Origin: a virus
Lineage: Duplodnaviria > Caudoviricetes
IMG/VR virus record: IMGVR_UViG_3300012921_000049
Location: 1 to 42,450 of that record
DNA length: 42,450 bases
Strand: one strand, 5' to 3'
Shown: positions 6,101 through 42,450 of the stretch, piece by piece
How the letters are laid out: the number at the start of each line of letters is the position of its first letter
How positions within the stretch are numbered: position 1 is the first letter of the stretch
The notes under the pieces: model-generated
Database searches by the model: none
The model's input: only the letters and a program-made list of their open reading frames with translations
Told to the model about the DNA's origin: nothing
Translations under genes and position numbers: made by a program

Positions 6101-9100
6101 CCGCACGGACCTGAGTATCAAAATCGCCCAGGCGTTCGGAGAGGCGCTGATAAAACTCAGAGAGTCTCTTGGATTCCTTATTATTCGCCCTGGTCGCCTG
6201 AGCTTTCGCGACGCGGGAAACTACGGACGGAAGCTCCTTGCCGGACCGCTTCGCAAGCCAAGCAATGGCGTCTTTCCAATCTCCAGAATGTGCATCCTGG
6301 TGCAGGCTGCCCTCGGGCGAGACCTCAAAATCGGCTTCTCCGTGCTGCATCTTGTAGGAGGGCGGCAATGCGTGGTCCGAGACCCGGATCTTGAGCGTTT
6401 CCCAATCCACCGTATCGCCATCCTCGTCGAATGCGATTGGCCTCACCAACTCTATGTAATGGGAATGCGACAGGTTCGAACCGAATTTGCGATCGACCGA
6501 CCAACCAGATTGTTCAGCATATTTCGCGATCAGCTCGGCGGCTCGATAAATTTCACCGCCCCGCTGCGCCATAACGTCCATGGCGGACTCCCGAGGCTGC
6601 TCGTCATCCAGCGGGAATTCCGATTTCGCGACCCGGCCCGTCTCGATCTGGCGGAACACATCGGCCCAGGTCGGGGTGCGGCCGAACGCCTTGGTCAGGA
6701 TGGCCCGCAGCTCAGCCAGGAATTCCTTGATCTTGGCAAACACCGCCGCCACGCCCCGGGCCGGCGCGGCGCCGCGCGACGCGAATTCCTCCGCCACGGC
6801 TTCCTCGAGCCGGGCCTCTTGGCTGAGGTCGGGATACCGCGCCGCGATGCCGTGCTTCTCGATCCAGCCCTGTTCGGCCGCGGCCCGCTCCAGCACGGCC
6901 CAGCGGGCCTGATCCAGCAGGCCGGTCTCGCGCAAGACATGGATCGCCTCGTGCCGGGCCGTGGCAAGTGGATCGGGGGCGGTCAGGCTCAGCGCGACTA
7001 GATTCTCGATCGGGGCAAAGGCGCCCGATACGCCGGTCGTAGAACCGTCCGGGCCACGGCCCAGGAGGCGATCCGCCACTTCGACCCGCAGGCCTGGCCG
7101 GCCCGTCATGCGGGCAAGCGCGCCACCGGTCAGCCGCGCCACGCTCTCGCGCTTCGCCTGCCATTCCGGCGCCAGGCTATACTCGCCGCTCAGGTCTGGC
7201 GCCAAAACCCGCCGCACCGGCCCAGAAGCGATATTGTCGCCCGGGCGAAACTCGGCTATGCTCCAGACGTCGTCGGGGCGGCCATTCCAAGGCGTTAGGC
7301 GCTCGGCCTTCACGGTTGAGCCACCCTCGGGGCCCTGAGCCCTCGGCCCGGCGGCGTCATCCCAGCGGTTCAAGGAGTAATGGAACGTGCCATCCGGCAG
7401 TTCCCGAACCGTGACCACCACATCCACCGGCGTTTCACCGATCATCACCCGGGCCGCGTATTTGTGCCACGCCTTGATGCGATCCGCGCCATCCCGGTCC
7501 GGCTCGGAGCCGATCAGCACGCCCTTCTCCAGCACGGCCGGGATGGCCGGGATGGCGCGGGCCAGGTGCTCGCCGATCCGGCCTGTGCTTTTCCGCGTGC
7601 CGCGATTGTCGAAGCCGATCGTGCGGCCATCGCTGGCCGTCACGCGCGTGCCGATCAGATTGGCGGCGTACCAGGTGCGGGCCTGTTCCAGGAGGCCGCG
7701 CAGATCCTCGGCCGGCGCTCCGAGTTCAGTGCCGGTCAGCCTGGCCGCGACCGGGAGATCATCACCGGTCTTGATCTCGGGCTGGCCGGACTGGCCTTCG
7801 CGCTGGAACAGCGGCACACCCTGCAGCACGGCGTCACGCATGGCCGGCGTGATCTCCATGGCATGGGCCTGAACGGTGCCGCCCGGCTCGTGGGTTATCC
7901 GAACCCCGCCATTCTCTTCCGCCCAGGCATCGGCCTCAGCTCTGGTCTTGAACTCGGCCTCGATCACCCCGCTTGGGTCGGTGTCGTCCCTCGCCTTCCA
8001 GGGCCTTGGATCCGGTGCCCCGGCGCTCACCTCGGCGCGGTTCACGCCCGCGCCGAAGCGCTTGCCCCACTTCGCCGCGTAGGCGGGGAGTATCTTGTCG
8101 TAGAAGCCCCGCATCCCATCGCCGCCGACCTTGAGATCGACTCCACCCAGCCTGGTGTAGCCGGTCTGAGAATCGATACTGCCCTCGTCATCGGAAATCT
8201 TCTTGGCCAGATCCTTGCCGAGAATCCCCTCGACATCACCGACCGGCGTGTTGGCGCGGGAAAAAACATTCCTCAGCATGCCATCACCAACGCGCCTGTA
8301 GGCGTTGATGCTCACCGTCTCGCCGTTGGCGGATTTGGCATAGTCGATCGCATTGATCTGCTTGCTCAGATCATATCGATCGGCCTGCTGGTCGCCGGTG
8401 GTCCACGCGATCCGGTCAAAGCCATTCTCGGCGGCCCAGCGTACGGCGCGGCGGAACGCGGCTTCGTGCCAGGTGGATTTCAGCGGCGCGTCCGGTACTG
8501 AGGCCGTTGCCCCCATCCAGGCCCGCATGGCTTCCCGCGTAGCCTGCTCGGCCTCGGCATAGCCCGGGGCATCGGTGCGCGTCTTGGCCTGCGCCTCAAT
8601 GGCTGCATCATAGGCAGCCTTCAGCTTGGCCTCATCGCTCCTATAACCCTTTTTCCGCCCCGCCTGGTGCCAGTCGGACTGAATCTCCTCGATGAAGAGG
8701 ACGCGCCGGCCATCGGCATCGGTGCGCTCGTTGAAGCGGATATGGGCGAGGATGTTCGGCGTATCGAAATGCCCGCTCACGAACTGCGCCGGCCGCCCCG
8801 AGGCCTGAGCATTCATCTCTTCGACGCGGCGACGCGCGTCTCCATAGTTGCCCGCGAACTGGCGCGAGCCAGTTTCTTGATCCACGATATAGGTACCGGG
8901 TCCATCCCCTTCGACCCGGTACCGCTTAGTGGTTTTCTTCTCCGGCATGGTCAGCAATAGCTCGCGGTATTCCTTCCCGCCGGGCAGCGTGTAGGAGTCG
9001 AAAAGCGATGGTCGCTGGCCAGCGGTTTTCCGATAAGCGGATCGCTCATCCTCGCTCATCCGCCGCCAGAGCTTTTCGCTCAACTCGTGATACTCACGCA

Positions 9101-9614
9101 CGGCCACATCGTCCCTGGGCTGAAGTGTGATTTCCTTGATCCCAACCTCGTTGTCGCGCAGGTATTGGGCCACGGCTTCGCGGGTCACAGTCCCTTGCTG
9201 TACCGAGAGCCAGTCCGACACCCCGGACCAATCGATCTCTTCCTGCTTGACGCCCTTCTGGGTCAGGTTGCGGATCGAGGCGGCCCATTGCTGAGCCGGT
9301 GCCTTGGGCTGCGGCATGGCCTCTACGGCCCGGGTCATGGCCGAATAGAACGGCTTGGCCGGCGCTTCGCGCTGGAATTTGGTCTTGGCCCGATCACGCT
9401 TTGCCGTGGCGGGCGCCGGAGCGCGGCGCGACGGCGCGGGATTGGCATTGAGGAACGCCACATCTTCCCGGGTCAGCTCGCCCGTGCCGGCCGCCACCTT
9501 GGCCCGGATCTCCGCCTTGCGGGCTTCGATCTGGTCAGGGCTCATCAAGGCATCCGCCGGCGGACTGTCAGGCAACTCCGCCGGCGGCGCCTCGACAGGG
9601 GCCGCTTCCGTCAT
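3105..9614 (-). CDS. Large polyvalent virion/ejection protein, C-terminal part (EEIQSD domain, LPD3-like, HExxH zincin-like, PLxRFG/LPD38-39-like C-terminus)
   Basis: 2169-aa ORF. Motifs FIEEIQSDW (~8680), HEAIH..EEAVAE (~6945), GYVPFMRYGD (~5215), AERFNRLATF..LLQFKGF. In frame with the upstream ORF across one TAG. Confidence 0.85.
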   Translation of the reverse strand: MTEAAPVEAPPAELPDSPPADALMSPDQIEARKAEIRAKVAAGTGELTREDVAFLNANPAPSRRAPAPATAKRDRAKTKFQREAPAKPFYSAMTRAVEAMPQPKAPAQQWAASIRNLTQKGVKQEEIDWSGVSDWLSVQQGTVTREAVAQYLRDNEVGIKEITLQPRDDVAVREYHELSEKLWRRMSEDERSAYRKTAGQRPSLFDSYTLPGGKEYRELLLTMPEKKTTKRYRVEGDGPGTYIVDQETGSRQFAGNYGDARRRVEEMNAQASGRPAQFVSGHFDTPNILAHIRFNERTDADGRRVLFIEEIQSDWHQAGRKKGYRSDEAKLKAAYDAAIEAQAKTRTDAPGYAEAEQATREAMRAWMGATASVPDAPLKSTWHEAAFRRAVRWAAENGFDRIAWTTGDQQADRYDLSKQINAIDYAKSANGETVSINAYRRVGDGMLRNVFSRANTPVGDVEGILGKDLAKKISDDEGSIDSQTGYTRLGGVDLKVGGDGMRGFYDKILPAYAAKWGKRFGAGVNRAEVSAGAPDPRPWKARDDTDPSGVIEAEFKTRAEADAWAEENGGVRITHEPGGTVQAHAMEITPAMRDAVLQGVPLFQREGQSGQPEIKTGDDLPVAARLTGTELGAPAEDLRGLLEQARTWYAANLIGTRVTASDGRTIGFDNRGTRKSTGRIGEHLARAIPAIPAVLEKGVLIGSEPDRDGADRIKAWHKYAARVMIGETPVDVVVTVRELPDGTFHYSLNRWDDAAGPRAQGPEGGSTVKAERLTPWNGRPDDVWSIAEFRPGDNIASGPVRRVLAPDLSGEYSLAPEWQAKRESVARLTGGALARMTGRPGLRVEVADRLLGRGPDGSTTGVSGAFAPIENLVALSLTAPDPLATARHEAIHVLRETGLLDQARWAVLERAAAEQGWIEKHGIAARYPDLSQEARLEEAVAEEFASRGAAPARGVAAVFAKIKEFLAELRAILTKAFGRTPTWADVFRQIETGRVAKSEFPLDDEQPRESAMDVMAQRGGEIYRAAELIAKYAEQSGWSVDRKFGSNLSHSHYIELVRPIAFDEDGDTVDWETLKIRVSDHALPPSYKMQHGEADFEVSPEGSLHQDAHSGDWKDAIAWLAKRSGKELPSVVSRVAKAQATRANNKESKRLSEFYQRLSERLGDFDTQVRAGNITANQSNSGKTWYLKRADNGARLVDVYDTAGPFSQDTAIQRGREKIVAEMGKVLGELTLLSADTPAAAAGVKQQRAKPVPLAEPLSTEKQSILDAALASFKDWRAAPRLPLTRDLTWAERFALHPRMLASTFPAFTRVWRAATAQLQLRDATAAQLSSLLKPYQSLGPQARTRVDAVLELGRLQNETYDGPTIGAVNRHGDTELSRFGERITLSPEEGEAYRSVRATMDKALDLLQEAVLDERGYGGPGGPGSADAMRASIRADMPEIEAQHRNETAQILDEIANAKRTGYVPFMRYGDMGLVVKNKDGEVVHFEKLETDGPFWRRANRSLASGRIARRVAAVRAKYPGHKVSGPFEIAPAAMERAGVSLQDIDVLAASGGADQDSYAQVRDAIDAALRARSFNKHFFGAKNTAGYSVDFERGLADYIVGLSGYLSRRATGREFDDALKAIPPIQAKLRLYAARYRDYVNSPQEEWQKARAITFFYYLAGNISSALVNVTQVPLISMPYLAQIAGMGRANAELIRASADVMKMLSIREKGVEIFDIEKAPSDVRDALRAAWEEGFVVPQQTYEQMATAQGRNKALRGVDDKLRAAAEVAASVFTAAERFNRLATFVATYRLGQDKSVMARAKTVYGRDPLYAGDEKYQTPAGLADWVIDETHLRMGKINRPEAMRGVGSWLLQFKGFTMQMLELFWRLTQNGGPEGRLAFAGIAAMLVAFGGLFGIPAGSDMKDWAERIYKFGTDRDLDIETEIRRGMTRLTGSPLIAEAIVKGLPRAAGIDLSGRIGMGQIAPDSLADSIGVPGELTLGRLQRAANNLKRGDALLAASEFMPQFLRNPMQAVAWSNSGIRSQQTGKVVIPASEIGAADVAMKAVGFTSADIANRRESEYAQQRESRAVAGMQAGYTGKLARLYAEMLVEQDPVKKREAYEAINAVRLEIAEYNKTAPISRRIMISSTTLRARVQEEQIGARARDRGAPKKTRQERSAIAEAYGTP

Positions 9615-9629
9615 GGCGGGCGGCGCGGC

Positions 9630-11543
9630 CTATGGAGGGGAACGGGTGCTGGTGGGGATTTCCTGATAGGCGAGCGGGGCCTTGGTGCGCTTGGGATCGG
9701 CCAGCCACACCTTGAACTCCGGCACGGTCATCTCCGTGATGGCCCCGATGCGGCGCAGCGCGGACCCATCGCTGAACGCCGCCCGGTAGGCGTTGATCGC
9801 GCCGGCCCGGTCGAAGCCGGCCATCACCTTGTGCTCGTCGAATCGGCCCGTGCCGGGATCGATCTGATCGACGATATAGACGCTGGGCGCTTCCAGGCCG
9901 GGGCCCAGGTAGATATCCACCTGATCGCCGTCGAAGCCCTCGCTGCGCTTCACATAGCCGTAATGCGCCGGCATGGTGACGCTCCACGGCTTGCCATCGG
10001 GATCGGTGCCGCGGCGTTCCGAGCCAGCCGGATTCTCGATCGAGAGGTCTAGGCCGTTCCACTTGATATGGGCCTTGCGATAATTGCCGGCCGCCTTCTG
10101 GGCATCGCTCGGCTCTGGCGCGACCCGCTCCAGCGCGGCCTGGTCGATCGCCTCCGGCGTGCTGGGGCGGAGCGGCGCCTGGCGCGAGCCGTCACCGATC
10201 GAACTGCCATCCCCCAGGAAGGGATTGGTATCGACGGGCTGCAGCACGGGTGCCGCAGCGCTGGGCTGCTCCGTAACCAAACCCGATACAGCGGTGTTTT
10301 GCGCAACCGGGGCAGGCTGGACTAAGGGTTGCGGGAAGGCCGGTATCTCATCATCGATCGCGGCGCCGGTCGGCGTGGGCTGCACGGCTGCAGTGGCCGG
10401 TACTGTCGGCGCCACAGGCTCAGATGCGGCTTGGCCAGGGCTGGGCGCGGTTGGCAACGGGTCGGCGTCTGCCTGCTGCTCCTGGGCGTCCTGAGGCACG
10501 TTAGCCGGCAGAGGCCGCTGCAGGCCGCGAGCCCGGCCATAGAGGTTCGCCCCGCCACCCGTGGCACCACCCATGGCGCCGCCCACCACGGCGCCGGCCG
10601 TGGCGGCATTCACCACGCCTTGCCCGGTCGGGATGGTGGCATCGGCGCGCTGCTCGGCCACATTCTGGATCGCCTGTTCGGCCGCGCTCTGGGCGGCCTC
10701 GACCGGCACCTCGGTCGCGGCCCCGATCGCGATGGAGCGGCCCAGCGAGCGCCCGCCGCCCCGCACCAGCGTCTCCATGACGGCGCCGCCCGGCCCGCCC
10801 AGGGCGGCCGTGGCCAGGCCGGTCTTGATGCCGGTCTCGCCCGAGATGCGGCGCGCCAACTCGTCACGCGCCGCCTGGGCGCGTTGGGTCACGGGTAGCG
10901 CTTCGTCCTGCTCGGCCATGATGGCCTGGAATTCTGGCGCGGCCGCGAGCCGGTCGAGCGGCAATTCCCTGACCCGCTTCTCGACCTCGGCCGCGTTCTG
11001 GCCCGCCGTGAGGATACCCTCGGCCGCGCCATAGCCGATCGCACCCGCGAGCCAGGGCGCCACCTTGCCGCCGATCTGCAGCACCTTGGCGCCGGCGCCG
11101 CCCGGCAGCAGGCTGGCCGCCGTGCTGGGCAGGCTGGCCGCCACGTTGAGGCCAATCGCGGCCGGATTGGTCAAGGCTGGGCCGGGTGAATAACCGGTGA
11201 TGCTGTCCGGATTCTCTACTGCGAATTCCTGCGCCATGGCGGCCCGCCCGGCGGGCGACATCCCGGCCCGGGCCTGCTCGGATCGCGACTGGCCGAACTC
11301 GACGATGGCCGGCCCGGTCTCGTCAGCACCGGCCCATTTCGCGAGCTGGCCAACACCGGCCACCGTCTCGAACGCACCTGATTTAATCGCCTGCCAGTAA
11401 TCGGCCAGGCCCACGCCGTCACCCTGGGGCTGGAACGGGTCATGCTCGATCGGCTCCAGTTTCAGCTTGCGCGGCCGCGGTGCTTCGATCGGCGCCGCCG
11501 GGGCGCCGCTGAACGGATCGGTGTCGATCGGGACCAGCTTCAA
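9630..11543 (-). CDS. Large polyvalent ejection protein, N-terminal part, with inorganic-pyrophosphatase-like domain
   Basis: Likely TTG start overlapping the upstream TGA. Gly/Ala helices, then AGNY.K..IENP.GS.R..HYGY..DGD.VD..FDEHKVM.GF, typical of the polyvalent-protein pyrophosphatase domain. Confidence 0.8.
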   Translation of the reverse strand: MKLVPIDTDPFSGAPAAPIEAPRPRKLKLEPIEHDPFQPQGDGVGLADYWQAIKSGAFETVAGVGQLAKWAGADETGPAIVEFGQSRSEQARAGMSPAGRAAMAQEFAVENPDSITGYSPGPALTNPAAIGLNVAASLPSTAASLLPGGAGAKVLQIGGKVAPWLAGAIGYGAAEGILTAGQNAAEVEKRVRELPLDRLAAAPEFQAIMAEQDEALPVTQRAQAARDELARRISGETGIKTGLATAALGGPGGAVMETLVRGGGRSLGRSIAIGAATEVPVEAAQSAAEQAIQNVAEQRADATIPTGQGVVNAATAGAVVGGAMGGATGGGANLYGRARGLQRPLPANVPQDAQEQQADADPLPTAPSPGQAASEPVAPTVPATAAVQPTPTGAAIDDEIPAFPQPLVQPAPVAQNTAVSGLVTEQPSAAAPVLQPVDTNPFLGDGSSIGDGSRQAPLRPSTPEAIDQAALERVAPEPSDAQKAAGNYRKAHIKWNGLDLSIENPAGSERRGTDPDGKPWSVTMPAHYGYVKRSEGFDGDQVDIYLGPGLEAPSVYIVDQIDPGTGRFDEHKVMAGFDRAGAINAYRAAFSDGSALRRIGAITEMTVPEFKVWLADPKRTKAPLAYQEIPTSTRSPP

Positions 11544-13255
11544 TTCTGCACCATCAGGTATTTGCCGGGCCGGGCCGGATCCGGCACATACCACTTACCG
11601 TCCTGCGCCCGGCGGGCGCCTTCCACCGGCGGGGCGTCAGCGCCCGCCGCAGGGCTGGCCTGATCACCACCGAACCGTTTCGCCAGATCGCCCTTGCCCA
11701 GCGCGCCCAGAGTAGCGGTGGCGGCCCGGGTGCCCTTCTCGGGGTCGTAGGTGGTCTGGTAGCCCACGGTCTGGCCCGTGATGGGATCCTTCTTCTCGGA
11801 CGTGACCGAGCCGCCGATCTTGCTGGCCTGCAGGGCGAGCTCCATCGCTTTCTCGTCCGTCACCCCCTTGGTCAGCGGCTGGCCGTCGGCGCCGGACAGC
11901 ACCTTGACCTGGGTCGGGTCGCGTGGGTTCAGGGCGATGAAGTGATCCCCGGCCGGGGTGATGTTGAACGCGGGGTTCTTGACTTCCCATTCCCGCAGCG
12001 CTTGAGCGGAGGCCGCGATATCGACCTGGCGGCCCGTGAGGCCGAGCTGCTTTCGGTTCAAATCCATCTGCTGGGCGAATTGCTGGGCGCGCTGATCCAG
12101 GTTGGCGCGGAACTGAGTATCGCTCTGCGCCATGCCGGCCCGCGCGATCTCTCCGCTCTGCCGGGTCGATTGCTCCTGGTTGGCCACGCCGCGCTCCTGG
12201 ATGGCCCGTACGGCGGCACGATCCGCCTTGGCATCGGCGCGCTCCTTGCGCTGTTCCATGCTGGTGATCGCCGCCAGCCCGCCCTCGCCGATCGCCCCCA
12301 TGGGGGTAACGCCGGGCCGCCCGCCCGCCGCCATGGTGGCCAGGCCGAACCGGAGCAGGTTCTGCAGGGCATCATCGGAGATGCCTTCCAGCATGCCGCC
12401 TGAATTGGTCGCACCGCTTGGCAGGATGCCGTAATCCCCCACCCGCGTCCGGGCCCCGTTGGGCGTCATGCCCGTGGCGGGGACGGTGGCCTGTTCGGCC
12501 GACAGCGCGGGAACATCCATGCCAAACCCAAGCTCGGGCGGCATGGCGGCGGTGGGTGCGAGGGCCGGCGCCGCTGCGGGCCGGGGCTGGCTCACCTGCG
12601 CGGGCAACGGCATGGGCATGGTCTGGCGCACCAGTTCGGTCTCCGGGCCGGGCCGATCCGTGGCGGCCAGCGCGCGGGCGAAGGTATTGCCATAGTCCAC
12701 GGCATTGGTGCGGGCCATGGCGGGGGTCAGCGCGGTAGCGGCGGGCTGGGTCGGGCCGGCCATCTCCTGTTCAGCACTGAGCGGCGGTGCGCGGGTTGGG
12801 CCGGCCTGGGCCATCTCCTGGGCGGCCAGTTCCTCGGGCGACATGCCGGATCGGGCCGCACCGGAGGCAAAGCGGTTGGCCTGCCCGATGCCGCGCAGCC
12901 GGGCCATGGTATCGGGACCGGAGAAGACCGGCAGTTGGGTGGTGTCGCGCGGCACCGCGACGGGCTGCACCGGCATCGGCATGACGCCCTGGTCATTCGC
13001 CGCGGGGCGGATCATCTCGGCGAAACGCTTCAGCGCGCCGGGCGCCGGCGCGGCCGGACCAGCCTGGGCCGGGGTGACAAGGTCGGTCGCCTCGGGCTGG
13101 TAGGCGGGACCCGGCTGGGCTGGAGCCGACATGGCGGCCATGATCTGCTGCCTGATCATGGGATCGGCCCTCACCGATTGCGCGATCTGCTCGGCGGCCT
13201 GGCGATCGCCCGACTTGGCCCGGTCCATCAATTTGCGGATCTGCATGGCATCCAT
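11540..13255 (-). CDS. Putative DNA ejection (internal virion) protein
   Basis: 571 aa, Ala/Gln/Pro-rich; LLRFGLATMA..G.IGEGGL motif; between pilot and giant protein genes. Confidence 0.7.
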   Translation of the reverse strand: MDAMQIRKLMDRAKSGDRQAAEQIAQSVRADPMIRQQIMAAMSAPAQPGPAYQPEATDLVTPAQAGPAAPAPGALKRFAEMIRPAANDQGVMPMPVQPVAVPRDTTQLPVFSGPDTMARLRGIGQANRFASGAARSGMSPEELAAQEMAQAGPTRAPPLSAEQEMAGPTQPAATALTPAMARTNAVDYGNTFARALAATDRPGPETELVRQTMPMPLPAQVSQPRPAAAPALAPTAAMPPELGFGMDVPALSAEQATVPATGMTPNGARTRVGDYGILPSGATNSGGMLEGISDDALQNLLRFGLATMAAGGRPGVTPMGAIGEGGLAAITSMEQRKERADAKADRAAVRAIQERGVANQEQSTRQSGEIARAGMAQSDTQFRANLDQRAQQFAQQMDLNRKQLGLTGRQVDIAASAQALREWEVKNPAFNITPAGDHFIALNPRDPTQVKVLSGADGQPLTKGVTDEKAMELALQASKIGGSVTSEKKDPITGQTVGYQTTYDPEKGTRAATATLGALGKGDLAKRFGGDQASPAAGADAPPVEGARRAQDGKWYVPDPARPGKYLMVQN

Positions 13256-22124: not shown

Positions 22125-23762
22125 CTACTCCGCGGCCCGGCTCGCACCGGCCTGGGCCGGATACAGCATGCCGAGCAGTGTGAGAAACACGTCGCGGGGC
22201 TCGATATGGGCCGTGCAGAGGCTGGCCCCGGTCGCGGCATCCATGACGCAGGTATCGAACCCGTAATGCATCTGGTGGCAGGGCTGGCACGGGGCCTTGG
22301 CGCTCGGCGCCGCGATGGTGGTGCAGCCGGGCCAGTTCGATCCGATGTTTCGGGCCGAGGAGTGGGAAAGCATGAGCAGCTTCTGCGGGGCCTCGAACGC
22401 GGCGGCGTTCATCACGCCGGTCTCAGGCCCGACCACGATATCGTCGGCCCGCATTGCCGTGATGAAGGCAAAGGTCTGGCGGATATTCCAGCGGCCCGAG
22501 CGGAAATGCAGGCGGGAGAGCCAATCCTTGCGCTGCTGGCGTTGGGCTTGCTCGATGAGATCGGTCACGGCCAGTTCGAGATGCTGACAGGCCTCATCGC
22601 CGACGAACAGGATATGGGCGTCGGTCTGGGCGAGCAGTTCCACCGCGGACCGGTCCACCCAGGGGTAGGCCTTGTGGATCGAGGAACCGGCCAGCGCCCA
22701 GAGCACAAGCTTTCCTTTGATCTTGGCCCGTTCGTCCCGGGCCCAGGCTGACTCGTCGCGTGACGGGTAGAAGCGCTGGTCGAACTGGTGCGGCAGCCCC
22801 GCGATATCGTGCGTCCGCTCCAAGTAATTGACCGTGCCGAAGATGCGGCGCCGCGCCTCCACGCCATAGCTGTAGCCGATCCGCTCCTTGATCTGCAGCA
22901 GCGAGCCTTCCAGGGATTCACACAGATTGATGATCCGGTCCCAGCGGCCCTCCCGGGCCAGGGCCGCCCAATAGGGGCCGAGCTCATGGTTGGGCACCTG
23001 ATTCTCATCCTGGACCCAGAAGGCATCGATATGGGGATTGTGGCGCAGCACGGCTTCGCCGCGCGGCGTGCACATCCAGGTGACGTGATAGCCTTCCGCC
23101 TTAAGGGGCTTGGCAATCGAGCCGGCGATCAGCTGATCGCCCAGCGCCCCGTAGCGGATCACCAGCGCTTTTTTGGCTTGCGGGGCCTCCATGTAGACAC
23201 CGTTGCGGTCATGCGTGCCGCAGCATTTCATTACCTTGCCGCTCGGGGTTTTGCGCAGCACCAGGAAGAAGGAATATTCATCGCCCTGGTCGCGGACATC
23301 TTCCTCCACCACATCGGCGCCAAAGCCGAAATCATTGAAGGCCGCCAGAATATCCTCGGGCCCAAAATCGTGCTTATGGTCGGGGTTGGCGCCTGGGGTG
23401 CCGCAGCGCGGATAGAGGTCCTTGTGCGGCAGATACAGGACCAGGTGGCCGCCGAGCCGCAACACGCGCCACCACTCCTTCAACGCGGCCCGGTAATCCT
23501 CGACATGCTCGAGGAAGTGGGATGAGAAAACCGCGTCGAAGATGGCATCGGCGAACATCGGCAAAGTGTCGCCTGGCGCCGGCATGTCGGCGACTCGGGC
23601 CCCTCCGAAATCCTTGCCGGAATCAAGGGTAAGGAAATGCGGGAACACCCGGTTGGGCCCGGATCCGACATCCAGCACGGCGCCGCGCGTGTAGGGCACG
23701 ATGAGGTGCTTGATTTTGGCAGACTCGGCATGGCTGCTATGTCGATCCGGGCGCCAAACCAT
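22125..23762 (-). CDS. Class I SAM methyltransferase fused to a GT9 (heptosyltransferase-like) glycosyltransferase
   Basis: VLDVGSG, FDAVFSSHFLEH, EWWRVL..GG; then VIRYGALGD..HNPHID, VGPETG..NAA, PCQPCH. Confidence 0.85.
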   Translation of the reverse strand: MVWRPDRHSSHAESAKIKHLIVPYTRGAVLDVGSGPNRVFPHFLTLDSGKDFGGARVADMPAPGDTLPMFADAIFDAVFSSHFLEHVEDYRAALKEWWRVLRLGGHLVLYLPHKDLYPRCGTPGANPDHKHDFGPEDILAAFNDFGFGADVVEEDVRDQGDEYSFFLVLRKTPSGKVMKCCGTHDRNGVYMEAPQAKKALVIRYGALGDQLIAGSIAKPLKAEGYHVTWMCTPRGEAVLRHNPHIDAFWVQDENQVPNHELGPYWAALAREGRWDRIINLCESLEGSLLQIKERIGYSYGVEARRRIFGTVNYLERTHDIAGLPHQFDQRFYPSRDESAWARDERAKIKGKLVLWALAGSSIHKAYPWVDRSAVELLAQTDAHILFVGDEACQHLELAVTDLIEQAQRQQRKDWLSRLHFRSGRWNIRQTFAFITAMRADDIVVGPETGVMNAAAFEAPQKLLMLSHSSARNIGSNWPGCTTIAAPSAKAPCQPCHQMHYGFDTCVMDAATGASLCTAHIEPRDVFLTLLGMLYPAQAGASRAAE

Positions 23763-34976: not shown

Positions 34977-36434
34977 TTAGGTGGCATGGCTGGGTGGCTC
35001 GAAGGCGATCTGCCCCTGCCGGTGATCAATCCGGGCCCGGGTCGCGATGGGGTTGAAGCTGTTCGTCGCGGCGTCGTAGAACACCTTTGCCGTGCCGATC
35101 TGGCCCTGCCGAACCTTGGGGATGATCACCTCCATCACGCCGCGGCTCATCTCTAATTTTTCGCTCCAGGCGAACCACTCCGGGGTGTCGGTCTTGGGTT
35201 CGGCACGCTCCAGGTAATACTCATCCCTGTAGGTGAACATCACGATATCGGCGTCCTGCTCGATCCCGCCGCCATCCCGCAGGTCGTTCATCTGGGGCCG
35301 CTTGTCGGGCCGGTTCTCCAGGTTTCGGTTGAGCTGCGACAGGGCGATGATGGGCACGGCTTGGTCGCCCGCGACCCCCTTCAGCCCTGCGCTGATCTCG
35401 TTGATCTCGTTGGTCCGGTCGCCTTTGTAATGATTTCCCGGGCGGACCAGTCCCAGGTAATCGAGAAACACAGCCTTTATCCCGTGCCGCCGGCGCGCGG
35501 TTCGGATCAGGGCCTCGATCTGGCCCAGCTTGATGCTGCGGTTCGTCACCAGGTAGAACGGCATGGCGCTGAACGCCGGACCGGAGATTTGCACCAGATC
35601 GGCGATCTGCTCGGTCGAGAGCCGATTGATCGACCGCATGTCGCGATACGTCACCCCGGAGGCGTTCGACAGGCTGCGCTGGCCCAACTGCTTGTTGCTC
35701 ATCTCGAGTGAAAAGAACAACACCGGATCACCGGCCCGGGCCATGTTGAGCGCCATCCCGAGCGCTAGCGCGGTCTTGCCCATGCTGGGCCGGCCGCCCA
35801 GGATGGCGAGATCGCCAGGCTCCAGCACGCCCAGCAGGTCATCGACCTGGGGGATGCGGGTCTGCACCCCGACATATTCGCCCCGGTGGCGCCGATCAGC
35901 CTCTTCCACGCCTTCCTTGACGGCCGCGAAGATGTGGACAATCGGGATGCTGTCGCCCAGCCCGGTCTCAACGATCCGAGACAGGCCGGCATTGGCTTCT
36001 CCGGCCAGATCGGCCGAGGTCTTTTTGACTTTCGCGTCCAGGGCTTCCCGGGCCAATGAGTTGGCCCAGATCGCGATTTCCCGCCGGGTGGCCAGATCCT
36101 TAACCACCCGGGCATAATCCTCGGCGCCGATGACCGTGGTGGCGTGCAGCGCGAGCCGGGCCAGATAACTTGGCCCGCCGATCTCGGCCAGCAACTCGTC
36201 GCGTTCAAATTGTGCCTTAAGGGTGACGGGATCTGCACGCTCGCGGCGCTCAATCACCACCGCGATGGCCTCAAAGATGCGCCGGTGCGCCTCGTTGTAG
36301 AAATGCTCCACACTGAGGAAGCCGCTGACCCGGTGATACGCCTCATTATTGACCAGGATCGAGCCAAGCAATTCCTGCTCGGCATCGAGGTTGTGCGGCA
36401 GTGGGCCGGTGTCGGTCAGGGCGAGCTGGCTCAT
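34977..36434 (-). CDS. dnaB: Replicative DNA helicase, DnaB family
   Basis: PHNLDAEQ.LLG, GRPSMGKT, FSLEMS, DYL.L, LSQLNR..E.R..KRP...DLR..G.IEQDAD; start at the ATGA overlap. Confidence 0.96.
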   Translation of the reverse strand: MSQLALTDTGPLPHNLDAEQELLGSILVNNEAYHRVSGFLSVEHFYNEAHRRIFEAIAVVIERRERADPVTLKAQFERDELLAEIGGPSYLARLALHATTVIGAEDYARVVKDLATRREIAIWANSLAREALDAKVKKTSADLAGEANAGLSRIVETGLGDSIPIVHIFAAVKEGVEEADRRHRGEYVGVQTRIPQVDDLLGVLEPGDLAILGGRPSMGKTALALGMALNMARAGDPVLFFSLEMSNKQLGQRSLSNASGVTYRDMRSINRLSTEQIADLVQISGPAFSAMPFYLVTNRSIKLGQIEALIRTARRRHGIKAVFLDYLGLVRPGNHYKGDRTNEINEISAGLKGVAGDQAVPIIALSQLNRNLENRPDKRPQMNDLRDGGGIEQDADIVMFTYRDEYYLERAEPKTDTPEWFAWSEKLEMSRGVMEVIIPKVRQGQIGTAKVFYDAATNSFNPIATRARIDHRQGQIAFEPPSHAT

Positions 36435-36877
36435 GACCACCGCTCCCAAAGCTGTTTTGGCTCAACCGGATGCTTATCGGCGCGCGGACGGGACGGACAC
36501 GACCACGATCCGCCATCGGTAAGGCGCACATAGGTCCAGCCGGCGGCGCGCAGGCTCGTGCCAGGTTCATTCGCCAGAATGTAGGTGCCGATGCGACGAT
36601 ACCCGAGCGCGAAGCCTGCCCGCGCTGCCGCGCCGTATAGAAAAGAGCATGTATTCTTGGCGCCATTGGTGCATAGGCGCACCACTTCAATCGTGCGGCC
36701 ATCGTCGCGGGCACGCGCGACCGGCCTACCCAATATTGCCACCCCGACCAACGCATCATCGATAACTGCGCCGAGCGATACTTTATGCCCGGTCACGGGC
36801 CCGTGGTGGCGGTGAAGCTCGCCAACGAAGGCGTTCGCCTCGCGCAGATGGATCGGGATCAGCCTGAGGCGGCTCAT
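36431..36877 (-). CDS. XF1762-family (Mom-like GNAT-fold) protein
   Basis: EANAFV...HRHH, VGVAI.GRPVAR..DDG..EV.RLCT, S.LYGA, TY....E.G.SLRAAGW; own ATG overlaps the natural stop of the methylase. Confidence 0.85.
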   Translation of the reverse strand: MSRLRLIPIHLREANAFVGELHRHHGPVTGHKVSLGAVIDDALVGVAILGRPVARARDDGRTIEVVRLCTNGAKNTCSFLYGAAARAGFALGYRRIGTYILANEPGTSLRAAGWTYVRLTDGGSWSCPSRPRADKHPVEPKQLWERWS

Positions 36878-37747
36878 CCTGCCATCCCCGCCAGCATGCA
36901 GGATTGCTGATGGCGCCCGGCATCGATCAACCCTTGCCAGGCCACGCCGTTGATCCACAGCACTTCCAGGCGCGGCCGGGCGCCATCGGCCAGCGCCGCG
37001 AATTCCACACGCCGCCAATCGGCCAGCGCGTCGTCGTAGAGCGGCGACGCATAGCCGCACAGCACCACCCCCCCCCCGCAGGCTCCGCAGGAAGGCCAGC
37101 AGCTCGGCATGCTGGGCATCGGTCATTTCATGCTTGTAGCCATGATAGCCATTCTTGGTGCTGCGGGTTTGCGACAGGTAGGGCGGGTCAACAAAATGCA
37201 GCGTGCGCTCACGATCATGCTGGGCCATCACCTCGATGGCCGAGCGATGCTCAATGGTCACGCCGGCTAAGCGCGCGATCAGCGCCGGCAGGCAATCGGG
37301 ATAATGCATCCAGTCATGCGCCGGCGTGGTGCCGCTGCGCGAGGATGTCGCGCGGAAGCCGGTCTTCACGCTGGCCTTGGTGGCGCCATCCGAGCCAAAA
37401 CCCATGAAGCTGCGGATGATCAGGCGCCGCGATAGCTCGACCGGATCATCACTCCATTCATAGGCCTGCTGGAATTCCACCCGCGCGAAGGGCGTGAGCC
37501 GCAGCGCCTCGATCAGCTTCGGCGCCAGCATTTCATCGCGCAGCACGCGGAACAGCGTCACCACCTCATCATCGAGATCATTATAGACCTCGGCATAGGA
37601 GCGCGGTTTGCGCAGCAAAATGCTGGCCGCCCCGCCATAGGGCTCCACATAGGCATGATGCGGCGGCAGATAGGGCAGGATTTTCGGCGCCAGTTTCCAC
37701 TTGCCGCCATGCCAGCGCAAAACGGGGCGCTTTGGGGTAGCGTTCAT
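36874..37747 (-). pseudogene. dam: Dam/D12-class N6-adenine DNA methyltransferase, frameshifted by one extra base in a G10 tract
   Basis: W.GGK..LA, YVEPYGGA, EVYNDLD and DPPY in one frame; conserved C-terminus VVLCGY..LY...L..W..EVLWIN in another; G9 would join them into 290 aa. Confidence 0.85.
37068..37077 (-). repeat. G10 homopolymer at the frameshift
   Basis: C10 on the plus strand; the longest homopolymer I noticed in the window. Confidence 0.9.
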
Positions 37748-38361
37748 GCCGCCACCGCCGGCCGGTCCAGCTTGCCGACCTGGTTGCCCCAGGCGTCCCA
37801 GCCCTCGGCTGTGGAGCGGGCGAAGAGTTCGATGCGCGGGCCCTGGAACAGCTGGGTCAGTTCGGCCCGCAGGTCGGCCGGCTTCTCGGAATGTATCTTG
37901 GTGCGGGGCGCGAAGAAGGCGCCGCGCGGCTTGGCACCAATGATCGGCTCGGGCCGGCCCCGCTTGCAGATCAGCAGATCCTCGGAATCACCCGTGGTTT
38001 CGAACCCGGGCCCGCGCGCCTGGCTGTCATGATAGATGAACGCGCCGCCCGCCTCTCGGGGCCACAGCTTCACCCAGACCCGCTTGGTGGAATACTTGAA
38101 GCCCCATGCCTGGAACACCTCGCGCGGCCCGAACCTGAGATGCGCGATGGGCGGCGTGATCCACAGGAACAAGCGGCACCCCTCGGGATGCGCGAGGCGG
38201 CCCACATTCAGCGCCGCGATATCCCGCAGCGGCATGGTGGGGTAGTGCCGGTTCGGATTCTTGTTCGGCCCCGAACTGAACTTCCACGGGGGATCGGCCA
38301 GGATGACCCGGTAGCGCCCGCCCGGCACTTGATCGAGCGGTATGTCGAGATAGGCGGTCAT
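37744..38361 (-). CDS. MT-A70-family adenine methyltransferase
   Basis: YRVILADPPW, HYPTM, LFLW, AWGF.Y, HSEKP, RIELFAR, GWDAWGNQ. Confidence 0.92.
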   Translation of the reverse strand: MTAYLDIPLDQVPGGRYRVILADPPWKFSSGPNKNPNRHYPTMPLRDIAALNVGRLAHPEGCRLFLWITPPIAHLRFGPREVFQAWGFKYSTKRVWVKLWPREAGGAFIYHDSQARGPGFETTGDSEDLLICKRGRPEPIIGAKPRGAFFAPRTKIHSEKPADLRAELTQLFQGPRIELFARSTAEGWDAWGNQVGKLDRPAVAA

Positions 38362-39029
38362 TCCGCCGCCTCAGGCCGGCCAATATAGGCATCCGCACAA
38401 TGGACCCCACAGTAGGGCTTGTTGGGATACCGGCGCGACCCGCAATAGCTGTGCTCTTCCGTCTTCGGGTCGCCATCGATCCATTGGCAGCCGCGCGCGC
38501 CATACTTGTCCAGTTCCGGCTCGGCGCCGGCCGGCGCGACCCAGGGCGCGCGGCCATGCTCGCGCTTCGGCGCGTCGAATACCGGCGTGGGGGGGCGGCC
38601 GAAGATGGCCGTCATATCGCCTGCCTCCCGCCGAGCCCGCTTCAGGACGCCATGGCCGAGCGGCGCGCCGGCTTCCTTGGCCACCATGTAGATATAGGCT
38701 CGCGACACCCCAAACCGCTCCTGAATCTCCGAGGCCGGTGTCGAGCGGCTCATGGCTTCGGCAATCCCTGCCTTGCGTTTCCTGCTCTCCTCGCGAGAGC
38801 CGGTGCCGGGCTTCCGTTTATTGGCCCCATCCTTGGTGACGCGATTCCGGCCCCCCGTGGCGTCATTGAGCGATTCAATCCCGTTTCGGCGCATATAGCC
38901 CACGATCACGTTGCGCGACACACCTGCCGCCGCGCCGATCCGGGTGATGCTGGCGCGGTTGCCCGCCTGGGCCCTGAGCCAGGACAGGCGCTCTTGGCGA
39001 TCAGCTCCGTCCCAATCGAACTGCGCCAT
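38358..39029 (-). CDS. gcrA: GcrA-like cell-cycle regulator
   Basis: N-terminal S...IG...GVSRN..VG...R; C-terminal CQWIDGDP....YCG......PYC..H...AY; start ATG 39029. Confidence 0.85.
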   Translation of the reverse strand: MAQFDWDGADRQERLSWLRAQAGNRASITRIGAAAGVSRNVIVGYMRRNGIESLNDATGGRNRVTKDGANKRKPGTGSREESRKRKAGIAEAMSRSTPASEIQERFGVSRAYIYMVAKEAGAPLGHGVLKRARREAGDMTAIFGRPPTPVFDAPKREHGRAPWVAPAGAEPELDKYGARGCQWIDGDPKTEEHSYCGSRRYPNKPYCGVHCADAYIGRPEAAE

Positions 39030-39031
39030 GA

Positions 39032-39634
39032 TCAGAACCCTACCTGCTGCTTGAAGAGAGGGCCGGCGGGCCGGATCGCGGGGAGGCGGAAGCAATGCCG
39101 GGCATAATCGTGCATCGCTATGGCGTCGGCCGCGTTGTCGTCCTGCGGGTACCAGCCGAGCTGCTGGCATCGGGCGATGGTTTTCCGCTTGAGCTCGTCT
39201 CGACGGCCCCGGGATGAGCCCAGAAAGTGGTGCCGGGCATCGGCATTATTCACTTCGAAGCGCTGCAGACCGAGCCTGGTCGCGACTAGCTCCACAATGG
39301 TGGGTAGGCCGAACACGAGCCTGACCGTGTTCTCCCCCATGCGGAGCCGGCCGGTCTCTCGATCGATCATGTGGTTCAGGTTGAGCGGGGCTTCAAACCC
39401 CAGCACGGTGGCCTGGCTCGACTCGATCCGCGCCACGAGCCATTGTTCGAAATAGGTATAGGTGCGGCCGTTATCGAAGCCGACCTCTTTGCTGCCGAGC
39501 GGATCGGGCAGCTTGATCGAGCCATGCTTGAGCCCGCAGGCCCGCAGCGACGGATCCTCATGCTCGCCAATCTCGGTATCGAACGCCCATCCGGTGATGA
39601 GCGATAGGTCGAGCATGAGAATCCGTTCCGCCAT
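39032..39634 (-). CDS. RuvC-like Holliday junction resolvase
   Basis: IL.LDLS..TGWA, FEAP, DDNAADA acidic catalytic motifs. Confidence 0.85.
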   Translation of the reverse strand: MAERILMLDLSLITGWAFDTEIGEHEDPSLRACGLKHGSIKLPDPLGSKEVGFDNGRTYTYFEQWLVARIESSQATVLGFEAPLNLNHMIDRETGRLRMGENTVRLVFGLPTIVELVATRLGLQRFEVNNADARHHFLGSSRGRRDELKRKTIARCQQLGWYPQDDNAADAIAMHDYARHCFRLPAIRPAGPLFKQQVGF

Positions 39635-39647
39635 GGGCCGCCCCGCT

Positions 39648-40286
39648 TCAGTTCAGCGACATGCCGGATTGATCATCGGCAGCAGAAGCCGCGCCCTTGC
39701 CGGAGCCCCCGGATTTGGTTGAGGACTTCTTCTTGCCGTCGGCTTTCTTTCCGCCCGCGCCGAGCCCGGCCAGGTTATCGGCCTGCTCTTCCCGGTAGCC
39801 CTTCTCCCAGGCCTGTGCCTGGCTGGAACCGGGCGGATAGGGATTGTCGTCGATTGAGCCATCCTTGCTGAACGCCATCGCGCCTTCATGCAGGGCGCGA
39901 TCATCAGGCCCGTTGATCAGGCCTGCGCCACGTTCGTTATGCTTGCGGTTGACTTCTTCGGCTTCAGCGAACGGATCGTTTTCCAGCGCGGCCGGCGAGT
40001 TCAGGAAGCCCAGATAGCGGTTGAGCCGGCTCATGTAGACCATCTGATCGTCAGGCTCCATCTCGGTGATCCGGAGTGCATCATCCATCGTGTCGAGGTC
40101 GACACCCATGCGCTTCATCGCTTTGCGCTGATCGCGCACGGCAGCATTTGCCCTCCGGGCCTCATCAACCGTGCCGCGGTGGTCGCGCTTCAGGTTTTTC
40201 AGGTCGATCACGGTGGAGCGGAAGGTTTCCTTAGTCAGTTCGCCTCCGCTGCTCACGTCGGTGTTGGGTTTCAATCGCTTTGCCAT
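39648..40286 (-). CDS. GapR (DUF2312)-like protein fused to an RMF-like motif
   Basis: N-terminal coiled coil then K..GVD......ALR...M....Y...L; C-terminal A..EG..A...G....NPY.......W.KGY; basic tail; AGGAG RBS. Confidence 0.7.
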   Translation of the reverse strand: MAKRLKPNTDVSSGGELTKETFRSTVIDLKNLKRDHRGTVDEARRANAAVRDQRKAMKRMGVDLDTMDDALRITEMEPDDQMVYMSRLNRYLGFLNSPAALENDPFAEAEEVNRKHNERGAGLINGPDDRALHEGAMAFSKDGSIDDNPYPPGSSQAQAWEKGYREEQADNLAGLGAGGKKADGKKKSSTKSGGSGKGAASAADDQSGMSLN

Positions 40287-40310: not shown

Positions 40311-41096
40311 TTACGAAAACGGCACAACATCCGCCGCCAGCTCGGCCGGCAGGCAAAGGCTGGTGCTGGGATTGCCATAGGCGGGCCGCAGCGCTTGGCC
40401 GAGGAAGGCTTCGCGGGTCGAGCCCATCACGGCGTGGGGGTGATCTTTGATGTGCGCCGGATCTGATCCGCCCAGCAGCAGCCAGCAGCCATTGCCGATC
40501 TGGTCGATCCCGTAATGGTCGAACGCGTAGCGGTTCGCGATGGCGCGCCGCCCGCGTCCGATCAGCCAATCCCATTCCCAATGGGCCAGCGCCACCGCAT
40601 GCGCGAGCCGGACCAGGGCAATGCTGAGGCCCTCGACACGCTGCGCATCACGGGCCACCGCGAAGCCGCAGCTATACACGACGAAGCCCCGGACCTGATC
40701 GAGCCAGGTCGGGTTGACCAGGCACCGCGTGCCGGCCGGTGCCTGGGCGGGATCCTGGAACCAGAACGACAAGTTCCGCATGTCGGCCACGAGATCGCGG
40801 GTCCAGAGCCGGCGCTGGATCGAGCATCCCGTCACGGTGTCGCCCCGGTACAGCAGCAGGCAGATCGTGGTGGTGCCGGTCCGGGCCTCGTCGTGGAAGC
40901 GTGGATCGGCCAGCACCGAGAGCGGCTCATCGGTGCAGACCAGGAAGGCCTGCGCGCCCTGCCGCAGGCTGGGGGTCACCATCACCCCGTACCCGGCCGC
41001 CTCGATCACGCCGGTCAGCCGCGCAATGTTCTGCGCCAGGAAGCGGTTCTGGGCCGTGGGCAGGGTGGTGCGGCGCGCGAAATCCACGGGATGCAT
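40311..41096 (-). CDS. Hypothetical protein with probable GNAT/acyl-synthase-like fold
   Basis: DP.F..ICLL..G..TGC..R, G.VVY..GFAVARD.Q..GLS..LVRL, W..DW.IG, DHYG pattern; TGATG-coupled to the upstream gene. Confidence 0.6.
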   Translation of the reverse strand: MHPVDFARRTTLPTAQNRFLAQNIARLTGVIEAAGYGVMVTPSLRQGAQAFLVCTDEPLSVLADPRFHDEARTGTTTICLLLYRGDTVTGCSIQRRLWTRDLVADMRNLSFWFQDPAQAPAGTRCLVNPTWLDQVRGFVVYSCGFAVARDAQRVEGLSIALVRLAHAVALAHWEWDWLIGRGRRAIANRYAFDHYGIDQIGNGCWLLLGGSDPAHIKDHPHAVMGSTREAFLGQALRPAYGNPSTSLCLPAELAADVVPFS

Positions 41097-42172
41097 CAGC
41101 GGATCACCAGATCGGCCGGGGCTTCGATCTGCAGCGCGACCGTCATGACCTGGGCCCGGCTCGGGTCGATCCGGCGCGCCAGGCTGAGGCGCGTGTAGTG
41201 GCCACCCGCGGCCCGGGTGATGCGGTGCAGGTGAAGCTGATCGGGTTCACGGGCGGCCGCCTCGAGATCGCCCAGCACCATCCCGGCATAGCCCTGGTCG
41301 CGCCGCGCATGGATGGAGCGGCCCACCACCTCCGGGCTGACCCGCATGGCGGCGCCCAGATGGGCATTGATGGCATCGCCGGCCTCCACCAGGAACAGGG
41401 CGGCGCGATCCGTCACGCCGGTCCGGGCCGCGAGATCGAGCAAGGGGATGCGCTGCACGGCCTGCTGGTGGAACTCGCGCCACAGCCCCGACATGGCGTC
41501 GGGTAGCAGCTGCTCGGGCCGGGCCTCGGTGCTGGTCCAGCCGGACCCGCCCTCCTCGGCCCGGCGCTGCTCGGCCAGCCCGGCCAGGCGCTGCCGGGCA
41601 TCGGCCAGGCTTAGGACTGTGCCGGTTTCGCCAAACTCGACCCGGGTCTCAGGCTCAGCGCGGTCGAGCCAATCCAGAGCGCGGTACGCCGCTCGCGGCG
41701 CCAGCACGGCCTCGGCCAGATCGATCCGCACCCTGCCCTCGGGCCGGCGCGCCAGAAATATCCAGCCGAGCTGCTCCAGGCCGAGCCCGATCGCATCGGC
41801 CCGGCTCTGGGCCGGCAGACCGACATATTGCCGCACCGCCGCCCCGTGGCCCATCGGGGCCGAGTGCAGGGTGCCGTCATGGGTTGCGACGAAACAAAGG
41901 TCGGCCCCCGCTGACCGCCCGGGGACCGACCCACCACCGCCCATCACCTCCTGCAGGAAGCCGGGCGGGAGTTTGAAATGCCGGAAGGCCGCGTCACAGG
42001 CCTGCACGGCGCTGGCCGGTATCGTGGTGGAGTCGGCCAGGTAGCGCTCCATCGTGTCATGGCTCAGGCCGGTCTGGCGGGCCAGCATCTTGAGCGTGAC
42101 GCCGGTATTCGGCACCAGTCGCCCCCGCACGGCCTGGGCGAAGCGGCCCGCTATGGCGCCGTTGCGGGTCAT
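41096..42172 (-). CDS. HTH regulator with C-terminal PAS-like domain
   Basis: TLKMLARQTGLSHDTMERYL HTH; C-terminal HLG......VVGR.I....D..Y.......A..EP...H...YTRL.L resembles the PAS_5 pattern. Confidence 0.65.
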   Translation of the reverse strand: MTRNGAIAGRFAQAVRGRLVPNTGVTLKMLARQTGLSHDTMERYLADSTTIPASAVQACDAAFRHFKLPPGFLQEVMGGGGSVPGRSAGADLCFVATHDGTLHSAPMGHGAAVRQYVGLPAQSRADAIGLGLEQLGWIFLARRPEGRVRIDLAEAVLAPRAAYRALDWLDRAEPETRVEFGETGTVLSLADARQRLAGLAEQRRAEEGGSGWTSTEARPEQLLPDAMSGLWREFHQQAVQRIPLLDLAARTGVTDRAALFLVEAGDAINAHLGAAMRVSPEVVGRSIHARRDQGYAGMVLGDLEAAAREPDQLHLHRITRAAGGHYTRLSLARRIDPSRAQVMTVALQIEAPADLVIR

Positions 42173-42450
42173 GCCGCCGCCCCACTGGTGGCGCGCGAAT
42201 TCTCTTTCCGGGCCAACGCATCGATCTGGCGCCGCGCCTCGGCCACGCCGAGGATGTTGCGCAGCTTGATGTATTCGCGCTCATAGCCGGCCGGTGGGGA
42301 CCAGCGCGCCCGCATGCGCTCGGCCTGCTTCGCCTTGAAGTCGGGGTCGGCATTCAGCGCCCGCATGCGCTCGGCCTGCTTCGCCTTGAAGTCGGGGTCG
42401 GCATGCAGCGCCCGCATGCGCTCGGCCTGCTTCGCCTTGAAGTCGGGGTC
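42169..42450 (-). CDS. 17-aa tandem-repeat protein, 5' truncated by the window edge
   Basis: Frame is open to 42450; (DPDFKAKQAERMRAL[H/N]A)n, then Y..LR...GVAEARR; ATGA-coupled to the next gene. Confidence 0.75.
   Translation of the reverse strand, partial: DPDFKAKQAERMRALHADPDFKAKQAERMRALNADPDFKAKQAERMRARWSPPAGYEREYIKLRNILGVAEARRQIDALARKENSRATSGAAA
42306..42450. repeat. 51-bp tandem repeat, at least 2.8 near-identical copies
   Basis: Units start at 42306, 42357 and 42408; one substitution seen (ATTC/ATGC). Confidence 0.95.

Follow-up and report, generated by a model that had tools for sequence, protein, structure and literature searches.

In LuxR-type receptors an N-terminal autoinducer-binding domain is followed by a C-terminal helix-turn-helix (HTH) domain, and VqmA, the regulator of phage VP882, reads a signal made by the host. 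A lysogeny switch based on an xre-luxR-luxI module has been described in Roseobacter prophages by a preprint which, in its main text, also reports copies in degraded prophages (10.64898/2026.07.02.736140); consequently, phage small-molecule signalling in Alphaproteobacteria is no longer new as a concept. The same main text does not contain PAS, GNAT or FeeM as whole words, and our literature search, from which subscription journals mostly fell out, found no paper on a GNAT-PAS pair, although the supplements of the preprint may list such modules. The original prediction for the stretch of viral DNA analysed here (42,450 nucleotides, hereafter the window) was that two coupled genes, encoding an HTH-PAS regulator and a GNAT-like protein, constitute a receptor and a synthase exerting an arbitrium-like control of lysis versus lysogeny. 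We report below how this locus compares with the systems already described.

The window is the end part of a 258-kb contig (L001) and corresponds to a podovirus-like prophage whose main genes all lie on the - strand; Pfam and PHROGs recognise among them DnaB, a DUF1376 replication protein, a terminase, an SU10-type portal and large ejection proteins. Judging from sequence, the GcrA-like gene and related genes would indicate an alphaproteobacterial host. The two genes of interest lie at the coordinates originally given, on the strand of the replication genes, and are coupled through the overlap of the regulator stop with the GNAT start (Table 1). The proposal that they head an early operon is not borne out by the window: an ATGA at 42172-42169 couples the regulator to a repeat-bearing gene further upstream, and the contig ends inside that gene, 278 bp upstream of the pair. 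Because of this end, the cI/cro switch, and with it the cII-type position originally assigned to the pair, is outside our view. By depth, the 51-nt repeat is present in about four copies, at which the assembly breaks; in three of the four runs (Logan) it borders on a 6,058-nt contig whose depth is similar. Logan contigs from all four runs span the pair with zero differences, but the runs may themselves be the source of the window and their agreement is thus not independent. The promoter scan returned 0 sites, and no RNA holder is listed.

Table 1. Coordinates of the gene pair, its domains and adjoining features in the window
Feature	Position	Strand	Basis
Regulator gene, 358 aa: XRE-type HTH, middle domain without assigned family, PAS domain	41096..42172	-	
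HTH domain of the regulator, residues 1-82, XRE/Cro-like	41927..42172	-	fold match and HTH_31
Middle alpha/beta domain of the regulator, residues 90-206, no family assigned	41555..41905	-	
PAS domain of the regulator, residues 241-351, PAS_5-like	41120..41452	-	
GNAT-fold gene, 261 aa, unnamed family	40311..41096	-	
N-terminal helices, GNAT residues 2-33, predicted to bind the middle domain of the partner	40998..41093	-	complex model
Residues R153-S158 of the GNAT protein, position of motif A (the CoA pyrophosphate loop)	40623..40640	-	
TGATG overlap, regulator stop / GNAT start	41094..41098	-	
Repeat-bearing upstream gene, truncated at the contig end; repeat unit of 51 nt (17 aa), in tandem	42169..42450	-	

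Directly downstream of the pair (39648-40286, - strand) lies a 212-aa gene whose product has an RMF/CrpP domain spanning residues 129-170 (E = 9.4e-9 in Pfam; Rmf_CrpP_fam in NCBIfam) and an N-terminal part without assignment; when 25 proteins were scanned against NCBIfam, this RMF-type match was the only one. A gene with a GcrA-like cell-cycle regulator domain and extra HTH parts (38358-39170, - strand) shares an operon with two adenine methylases, MT-A70 and D12. The D12 gene (36431-37747, - strand) is apparently frameshifted at a run of 10 G near 37067-37076: its likely C-terminus is encoded in a different reading frame (36874-37119), with the long ORF continuing into a Mom-like domain. This appears to be either phase variation or an assembly error. 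Further away on the same strand, a 545-aa methyltransferase with a weak glycosyltransferase match is located within the structural gene cluster (22125-23762), and two proteins stand out among the ejection proteins (3105-11594), one of 2169 aa that is polyvalent (LPD3) and one of 654 aa that bears an InPase domain.

The GNAT fold proposed for the 261-aa protein holds. Its AlphaFold model (88-row alignment) has a pLDDT of 94.6, and the 50 matches listed by VIA are all GNAT-fold entries, the best one being serotonin N-acetyltransferase (Z 11.3, rmsd 3.3, 153 aligned). The fold does not, however, identify the reaction, since FeeM (2g0b) is the first match by Foldseek (E = 6.2e-5) and the 34th by VIA (Z 9.5, rmsd 3.6, 167 aligned), with 33 entries higher by Z; general N-acetyltransferases stand above it, and the top VIA matches comprise protein N-terminal acetyltransferases. 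Profile searches of 88 family members at E up to 0.05 gave eight matches to Acetyltransf_1 and none to the LuxI or autoinducer-synthase families of Pfam; the FeeM-type PF21926 was likewise matched by none of the 88. No AHL synthase is present among the 50 fold matches listed by VIA, which does not thereby exclude unlisted entries, and a cluster annotated AHL_synthase (PF17327) that scored 0.82 by features is taken as a lead only. The fold search of BFVD with the same model returned generic viral GNATs only (best E = 8.2e-5).

The CoA pyrophosphate loop of GNATs (motif A) reads R/Q-x-x-G-x-G/A, and GNATs that use acyl carrier protein (ACP) can be devoid of it. The 261-aa protein retains R153-V-E-G-L-S158 at this place, so that the acyl-CoA motif, originally called degenerate, is only partly so. 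Erosion of the loop extends over most of the 58 rows that form, in a quick tree, the subtree of this protein; the loose R/Q-x-x-G pattern is found in 28 of the 88 rows, plus three more with one insertion, and distant family members display a clear W-x-x-P-x-x-R-G-x-G loop. Among the 56 paired members of the family, 48 carry Arg in the R153 column and 55 keep G196. Over the 88 rows, R95, R163 and G196 are conserved in 81, 80 and 81 cases, respectively.

For the 358-aa regulator, the AlphaFold model (31-row alignment) has a pLDDT of 83.1, and both predicted domains were found where expected. The N-terminal one (residues 1-82) matches XRE-family regulators by VIA (2ofy, Z 8.6, rmsd 2.9, 76 aligned), with Pfam HTH_31 at residues 14-63, below cut-off (E = 4.4e-4). 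At the other end, residues 252-348 match the PAS domain of ThkA (Z 9.1, rmsd 3.1, 88 aligned), with phage VqmA matched there too (Z 8.6, rmsd 4.2, 108 aligned). These Z values are moderate, but ESM Atlas and the PAS_5 matches of relatives agree with the PAS call. The window regulator itself has no PAS_5 match in Pfam; seven relatives from the partner family pass or approach the cut-off (six of 32 partners scanned, one of them below cut-off, and one from a separate scan). Conserved PAS residues are G284, D292, Y295, P310, Y326 and R328; among the 56 paired family members, Y326 is kept in 55 and R328 in 54, a near-invariance that may point to a ligand pocket. The middle domain has no match among the fold matches listed by VIA, and ten sequences of this domain alone gave a best E of 0.14 against PHROGs. 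No match to Phage_CP76 or to the PHROG CII family was obtained for the regulator in Pfam and PHROGs. More generally, scans of the two window proteins gave only weak HTH matches in Pfam, all below cut-off, and none in PHROGs, PADLOC or NCBIfam.

Close relatives are rare, two for the GNAT protein and three for the regulator, and one GNAT-relative/regulator-relative pair is found on same-sized contigs (5,840 and 17,059). A profile search with the GNAT family is more productive: it yielded 99 clusters at E up to 0.001, and in the 25 that were looked up all named ones are "hypothetical". Members of the family were detected in 40 of the 401 alphaproteobacterial genomes searched, about one in ten; this tally includes one unpublished genome, G245, on which nothing else reported here depends. 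They almost always have the same PAS-family gene as neighbour, and the family is unnamed in Pfam, NCBIfam, PHROGs and PADLOC. In genomes kept out of the partner profile (three orders, close kin included), 36 of 40 GNAT genes have an adjacent partner-family gene within 600 nt, and three of the remaining four lie under 600 nt from a contig end. When all loci are taken into account, training ones included, a partner is present beside 77 of 89 GNATs and none beside 12; in 22 of the 89 cases the partner is PAS-only, i.e. it has no middle domain. Conversely, 9 of 31 two-domain partners have no GNAT gene within 1.5 kb, and on the 359-kb contig of the closest regulator relative (P0005, 65% identical) no GNAT is found among the GNAT search matches. 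Another sequence, P0007, consists of the N-terminal 215 residues of P0005 followed by a molybdopterin oxidoreductase, and is probably a misassembly. A genome-level overlap (the GNAT is present in 20 of the 23 genomes that contain a two-domain partner) was set aside as circular, since the partner profile came from the same genomes. Homology within the partner family rests on iterated HMMs in a set of 4,302 ORFs: profiles seeded from the window regulator and from chromosomal neighbours converged on one family. Direct hhalign comparison of the shallow partner alignments was not significant (probability 0.7%), and a genome scan with the close alignment of the regulator found none. We conclude that the GNAT and its partner are a real, conserved and unnamed module. 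The two checks proposed with the original prediction, structure prediction with Foldseek and gene-neighbourhood co-occurrence, failed to refute it, since PAS and GNAT folds were found and the pair recurs far beyond the window.

The layout of the pairs bears on one alternative, a GNAT toxin neutralised by the binding of an HTH-bearing antitoxin. In the window, the HTH gene upstream, the GNAT gene downstream, their translational coupling and the predicted binding described below would suit such a system, and GNAT toxins are present among the fold matches (7byy, Z 10.2; TacT3, Z 9.6). However, these scores are no higher than those of unrelated GNATs, PADLOC found no match in 14 proteins, and the co-transcribed layout of the window is not the usual one: 31 of the 36 held-out pairs are convergent instead and five are in tandem. 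Taking into account also the 12 GNATs without a nearby partner, we regard a toxin-antitoxin function as very improbable.

According to complex prediction, the GNAT protein and the regulator bind to one another. Modelling of GNAT residues 1-255 with partner residues 88-352, from a 29-row alignment for each protein, gave a complex score of 0.81, as compared to 0.01 for the best of three controls; the runs agree in at least 93% of contacts, the pLDDT of the partner is at least 83 and there are 98-111 confident contacts. The mark applied is reached by 116 of 157 solved complexes and by 2 of 215 mismatched pairs, a calibration that is only roughly valid with our own alignments. In the tool's own test 7 of 44 blind neighbours passed, and the shared ancestry of paired alignments could raise the score. 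PDB sequence searches with the window proteins retrieved no solved relative at E under 0.39, and a pass due to memory of a similar solved complex is therefore less likely. In the model, residues 2-33 and 229-253 of the GNAT protein would contact residues 259-293 of the PAS domain and, as the main predicted docking site, residues 117-136 of the middle domain; the CoA-loop region lies outside this interface. An excess of N-terminal matches beside two-domain partners is what such a model would predict, and the N-terminal part of the profile is matched by 35 of 55 GNATs with two-domain partners versus 4 of 22 with PAS-only ones (Fisher p = 4e-4, kin not corrected). For 18 of the 29 rows, close kin dropped, pairwise distances in one gene correlate with those in the other (r = 0.68), which shared descent explains too.

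A predicted complex of this kind could mean that no small product is involved: the GNAT protein would be an acyl-CoA-sensing or catalytically dead cofactor, or would acylate the regulator. The number of confident contacts, the erosion of the CoA loop in most of the surrounding subtree, the protein N-terminal acetyltransferases among the top VIA matches and, to the extent that shared descent does not account for it, the distance correlation are consistent with such a switch at the protein level. On the other hand, the interface leaves the CoA-loop region free and does not place the partner in it, R153 and G196 are retained in most paired members, and the near-invariant PAS residues would rather suggest a ligand pocket. 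On balance this alternative seems to us rather doubtful.

Most copies examined sit among host housekeeping genes. In the lineage comprising L039, L040, L197 and L198, an AMP-binding ligase gene is located upstream, on the same strand as a tandem HTH-PAS/GNAT pair that lies near tRNA-Lys(CTT); this arrangement is at 2602-6692 in L197 and at 9418-13438 in L198, and in these two loci an ACP gene was confirmed as well. These neighbours, confined to that lineage, may belong to another system. Five of a set of six loci (L002-L005 and L007, of Rhodospirillales) have a divergent gene of about 290 aa beside the GNAT gene, a SAM methyltransferase in L002. Neither the ligase/ACP nor the methyltransferase neighbour is general to the GNAT family. 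Two loci contain two family GNAT genes in tandem (L048, 1318-3324; L058, 8922-10594).

A copy is also present in an isolated phage, vB_LagS-V1 (PP058680.1), which grows on Roseibium aggregatum. Its GNAT gene (E = 1.2e-31) faces and overlaps a weakly matching PAS partner (E = 0.0017); a 77-aa gene and then a 160-aa cI, in which no peptidase domain was detected, come after them, and cro and a CP76 CII gene are divergently oriented. The location of the pair in the immunity region of this temperate phage supports a role in phage gene control. Gene order is similar in another locus (L064), where a cI-like gene and a phage-type ParB gene are found beside the pair. Thus, one phage carries the module on its cI side, and the window has it on the replication-gene strand. 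The DNA-binding output varies as well: the partner is fused to an XRE-type HTH in the window, to RHH_4 in L200 and, in L054 and L060, to a helical N-terminal stretch weakly matching PHROG 27989, and separate HTH_3 genes flank ten loci (L038, L041, L042, L049, L064, L069, L072, L075, L076, L077). Searches of viral contigs, for which A1, A2, P0012, P0019 and the RMF-like gene downstream of the pair served as queries, found no relative, and a motif scan of 19 of the 64 parts of the viral-contig collection gave 119 loci, none of them in the family. Among annotated phages, one of four GNAT queries had a match, three had none, and the regulator had only two chance-level matches. Two loci in which the pair lies beside transposase-like ORFs at a contig end (L246, L247) were not counted as phage evidence; in L247 the GNAT gene is in three pieces.

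It could be argued that the prophage merely took up a host regulatory module which has no part in the lysis-lysogeny decision. The preponderance of copies among housekeeping genes would agree with this, as would the fact that viral contigs and annotated phages gave no relative of the window's own clade. But overlapping codons couple both genes into the early operon here, and the pair is found behind cI in vB_LagS-V1 and beside cI-like and phage-type ParB genes in L064; such passive cargo therefore appears improbable to us.

The best reading, which we hold tentatively, is that of an enzyme-receptor complex controlling early phage transcription. The GNAT protein would dock by its N-terminal helices and C-terminal part on the middle and PAS domains of its partner and acylate a small acceptor at the expense of acyl-CoA or acyl-ACP; the compound so formed would bind the conserved PAS pocket beside the enzyme, and the loaded PAS would alter DNA binding by the HTH, thereby tuning early transcription to host metabolism. 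The folds, the co-occurrence in held-out genomes and the contrast between the complex score and its controls argue for this reading. So do the conservation of Y326 and R328, the bias of N-terminal matches towards two-domain partners, the recurrence of a DNA-binding output in several forms (XRE-type HTH, RHH_4, HTH_3, cI) and, in one lineage, the ligase gene with its ACP gene in two loci. Against it stand the poor retention of the CoA loop, the PAS-only or missing partners, the two-domain partners without GNAT, including the closest relative of the regulator, and the two points raised above about the complex score, i.e. the passes among blind neighbours and possible inflation by shared ancestry.

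The reading closest to the original prediction differs in the fate of the product, which would leave the cell and accumulate with lysogen density, the PAS domain in other cells then steering lysis or lysogeny. Many luxI/luxR pairs consist of convergent, closely spaced or overlapping genes, and most of the held-out pairs have this layout. In vB_LagS-V1 the pair lies behind cI, the slot that xre-luxR-luxI occupies in Roseobacter prophages according to the main text of the preprint (10.64898/2026.07.02.736140). The first place of FeeM by Foldseek, the presence of phage VqmA among the PAS matches and the partners without GNAT, which resemble solo receptors, also speak for a diffusible signal. What weakens it is that none of the 88 family members has a LuxI or FeeM match in Pfam, that FeeM ranks below general N-acetyltransferases by VIA, that the predicted complex is not needed for it and that the pair in the window is on the replication-gene strand and is not seen on the cI side. 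We consider it rather unlikely in this form. The original prediction is thus partly supported: its folds and its co-occurrence hold and a copy lies in an immunity region, but the GNAT fold does not single out LuxI or FeeM, most copies examined lie in a housekeeping context, and the predicted complex, which the original prediction did not include, is one that a LuxI/LuxR-type circuit has no need of. A broader version, in which a new acyl-signal synthase docked on a PAS receptor would release a diffusing product and be plugged into the cI or the early lytic side through interchangeable heads (XRE, RHH, cI), would amount to an undescribed form of chemical signalling in Alphaproteobacteria and their phages; it is, in our view, unlikely.

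If the pair does make and sense a molecule, it would provide a second chemistry for phage decisions in Alphaproteobacteria beside LuxI/LuxR, as well as a function for the orphan PAS_5 family. The idea is directly testable, since a distant copy exists in a phage-host pair that is in culture, namely vB_LagS-V1 on Roseibium aggregatum.

The locus compares with known systems as follows. As in GNAT toxin-antitoxin pairs of the TacT/AtaT type, a GNAT protein is predicted to bind the DNA-binding product of the adjacent gene, but here the genes are mostly convergent, the partner is large and bears a PAS domain, and there are copies with no partner. The regulator has no CII (CP76) match, and in vB_LagS-V1 a separate CP76 gene lies beside cro. 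FeeM-type synthases share the GNAT fold, and ACP and ligase genes stand beside one lineage of the present family; identity to FeeM is, however, 11-13%, PF21926 is not matched, and a conserved PAS partner gene is attached. VqmA of phage VP882 (7dwm) is likewise a phage-borne one-component regulator with a PAS domain, but here the order is reversed, with the HTH first and of the XRE type, and the regulator has a middle domain besides and is accompanied by a dedicated enzyme gene. Closest in logic, as far as the main text of the preprint goes, is xre-luxR-luxI, which also combines a GNAT-fold enzyme, a sensor and XRE-type DNA binding in the regulatory region of an alphaproteobacterial prophage. 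By its profiles and domain order the present pair is not LuxI/LuxR, since the LuxI profile is not matched and the regulator has an N-terminal XRE-type HTH and a C-terminal PAS domain. The sensor is thus PAS_5-like rather than LuxR, the enzyme is without LuxI family match, the pair is mostly convergent, and binding between its proteins is predicted. Docking of a synthase on its receptor would depart from textbook quorum sensing, and it is this predicted complex, together with the HTH-fused tandem form, that is new here.
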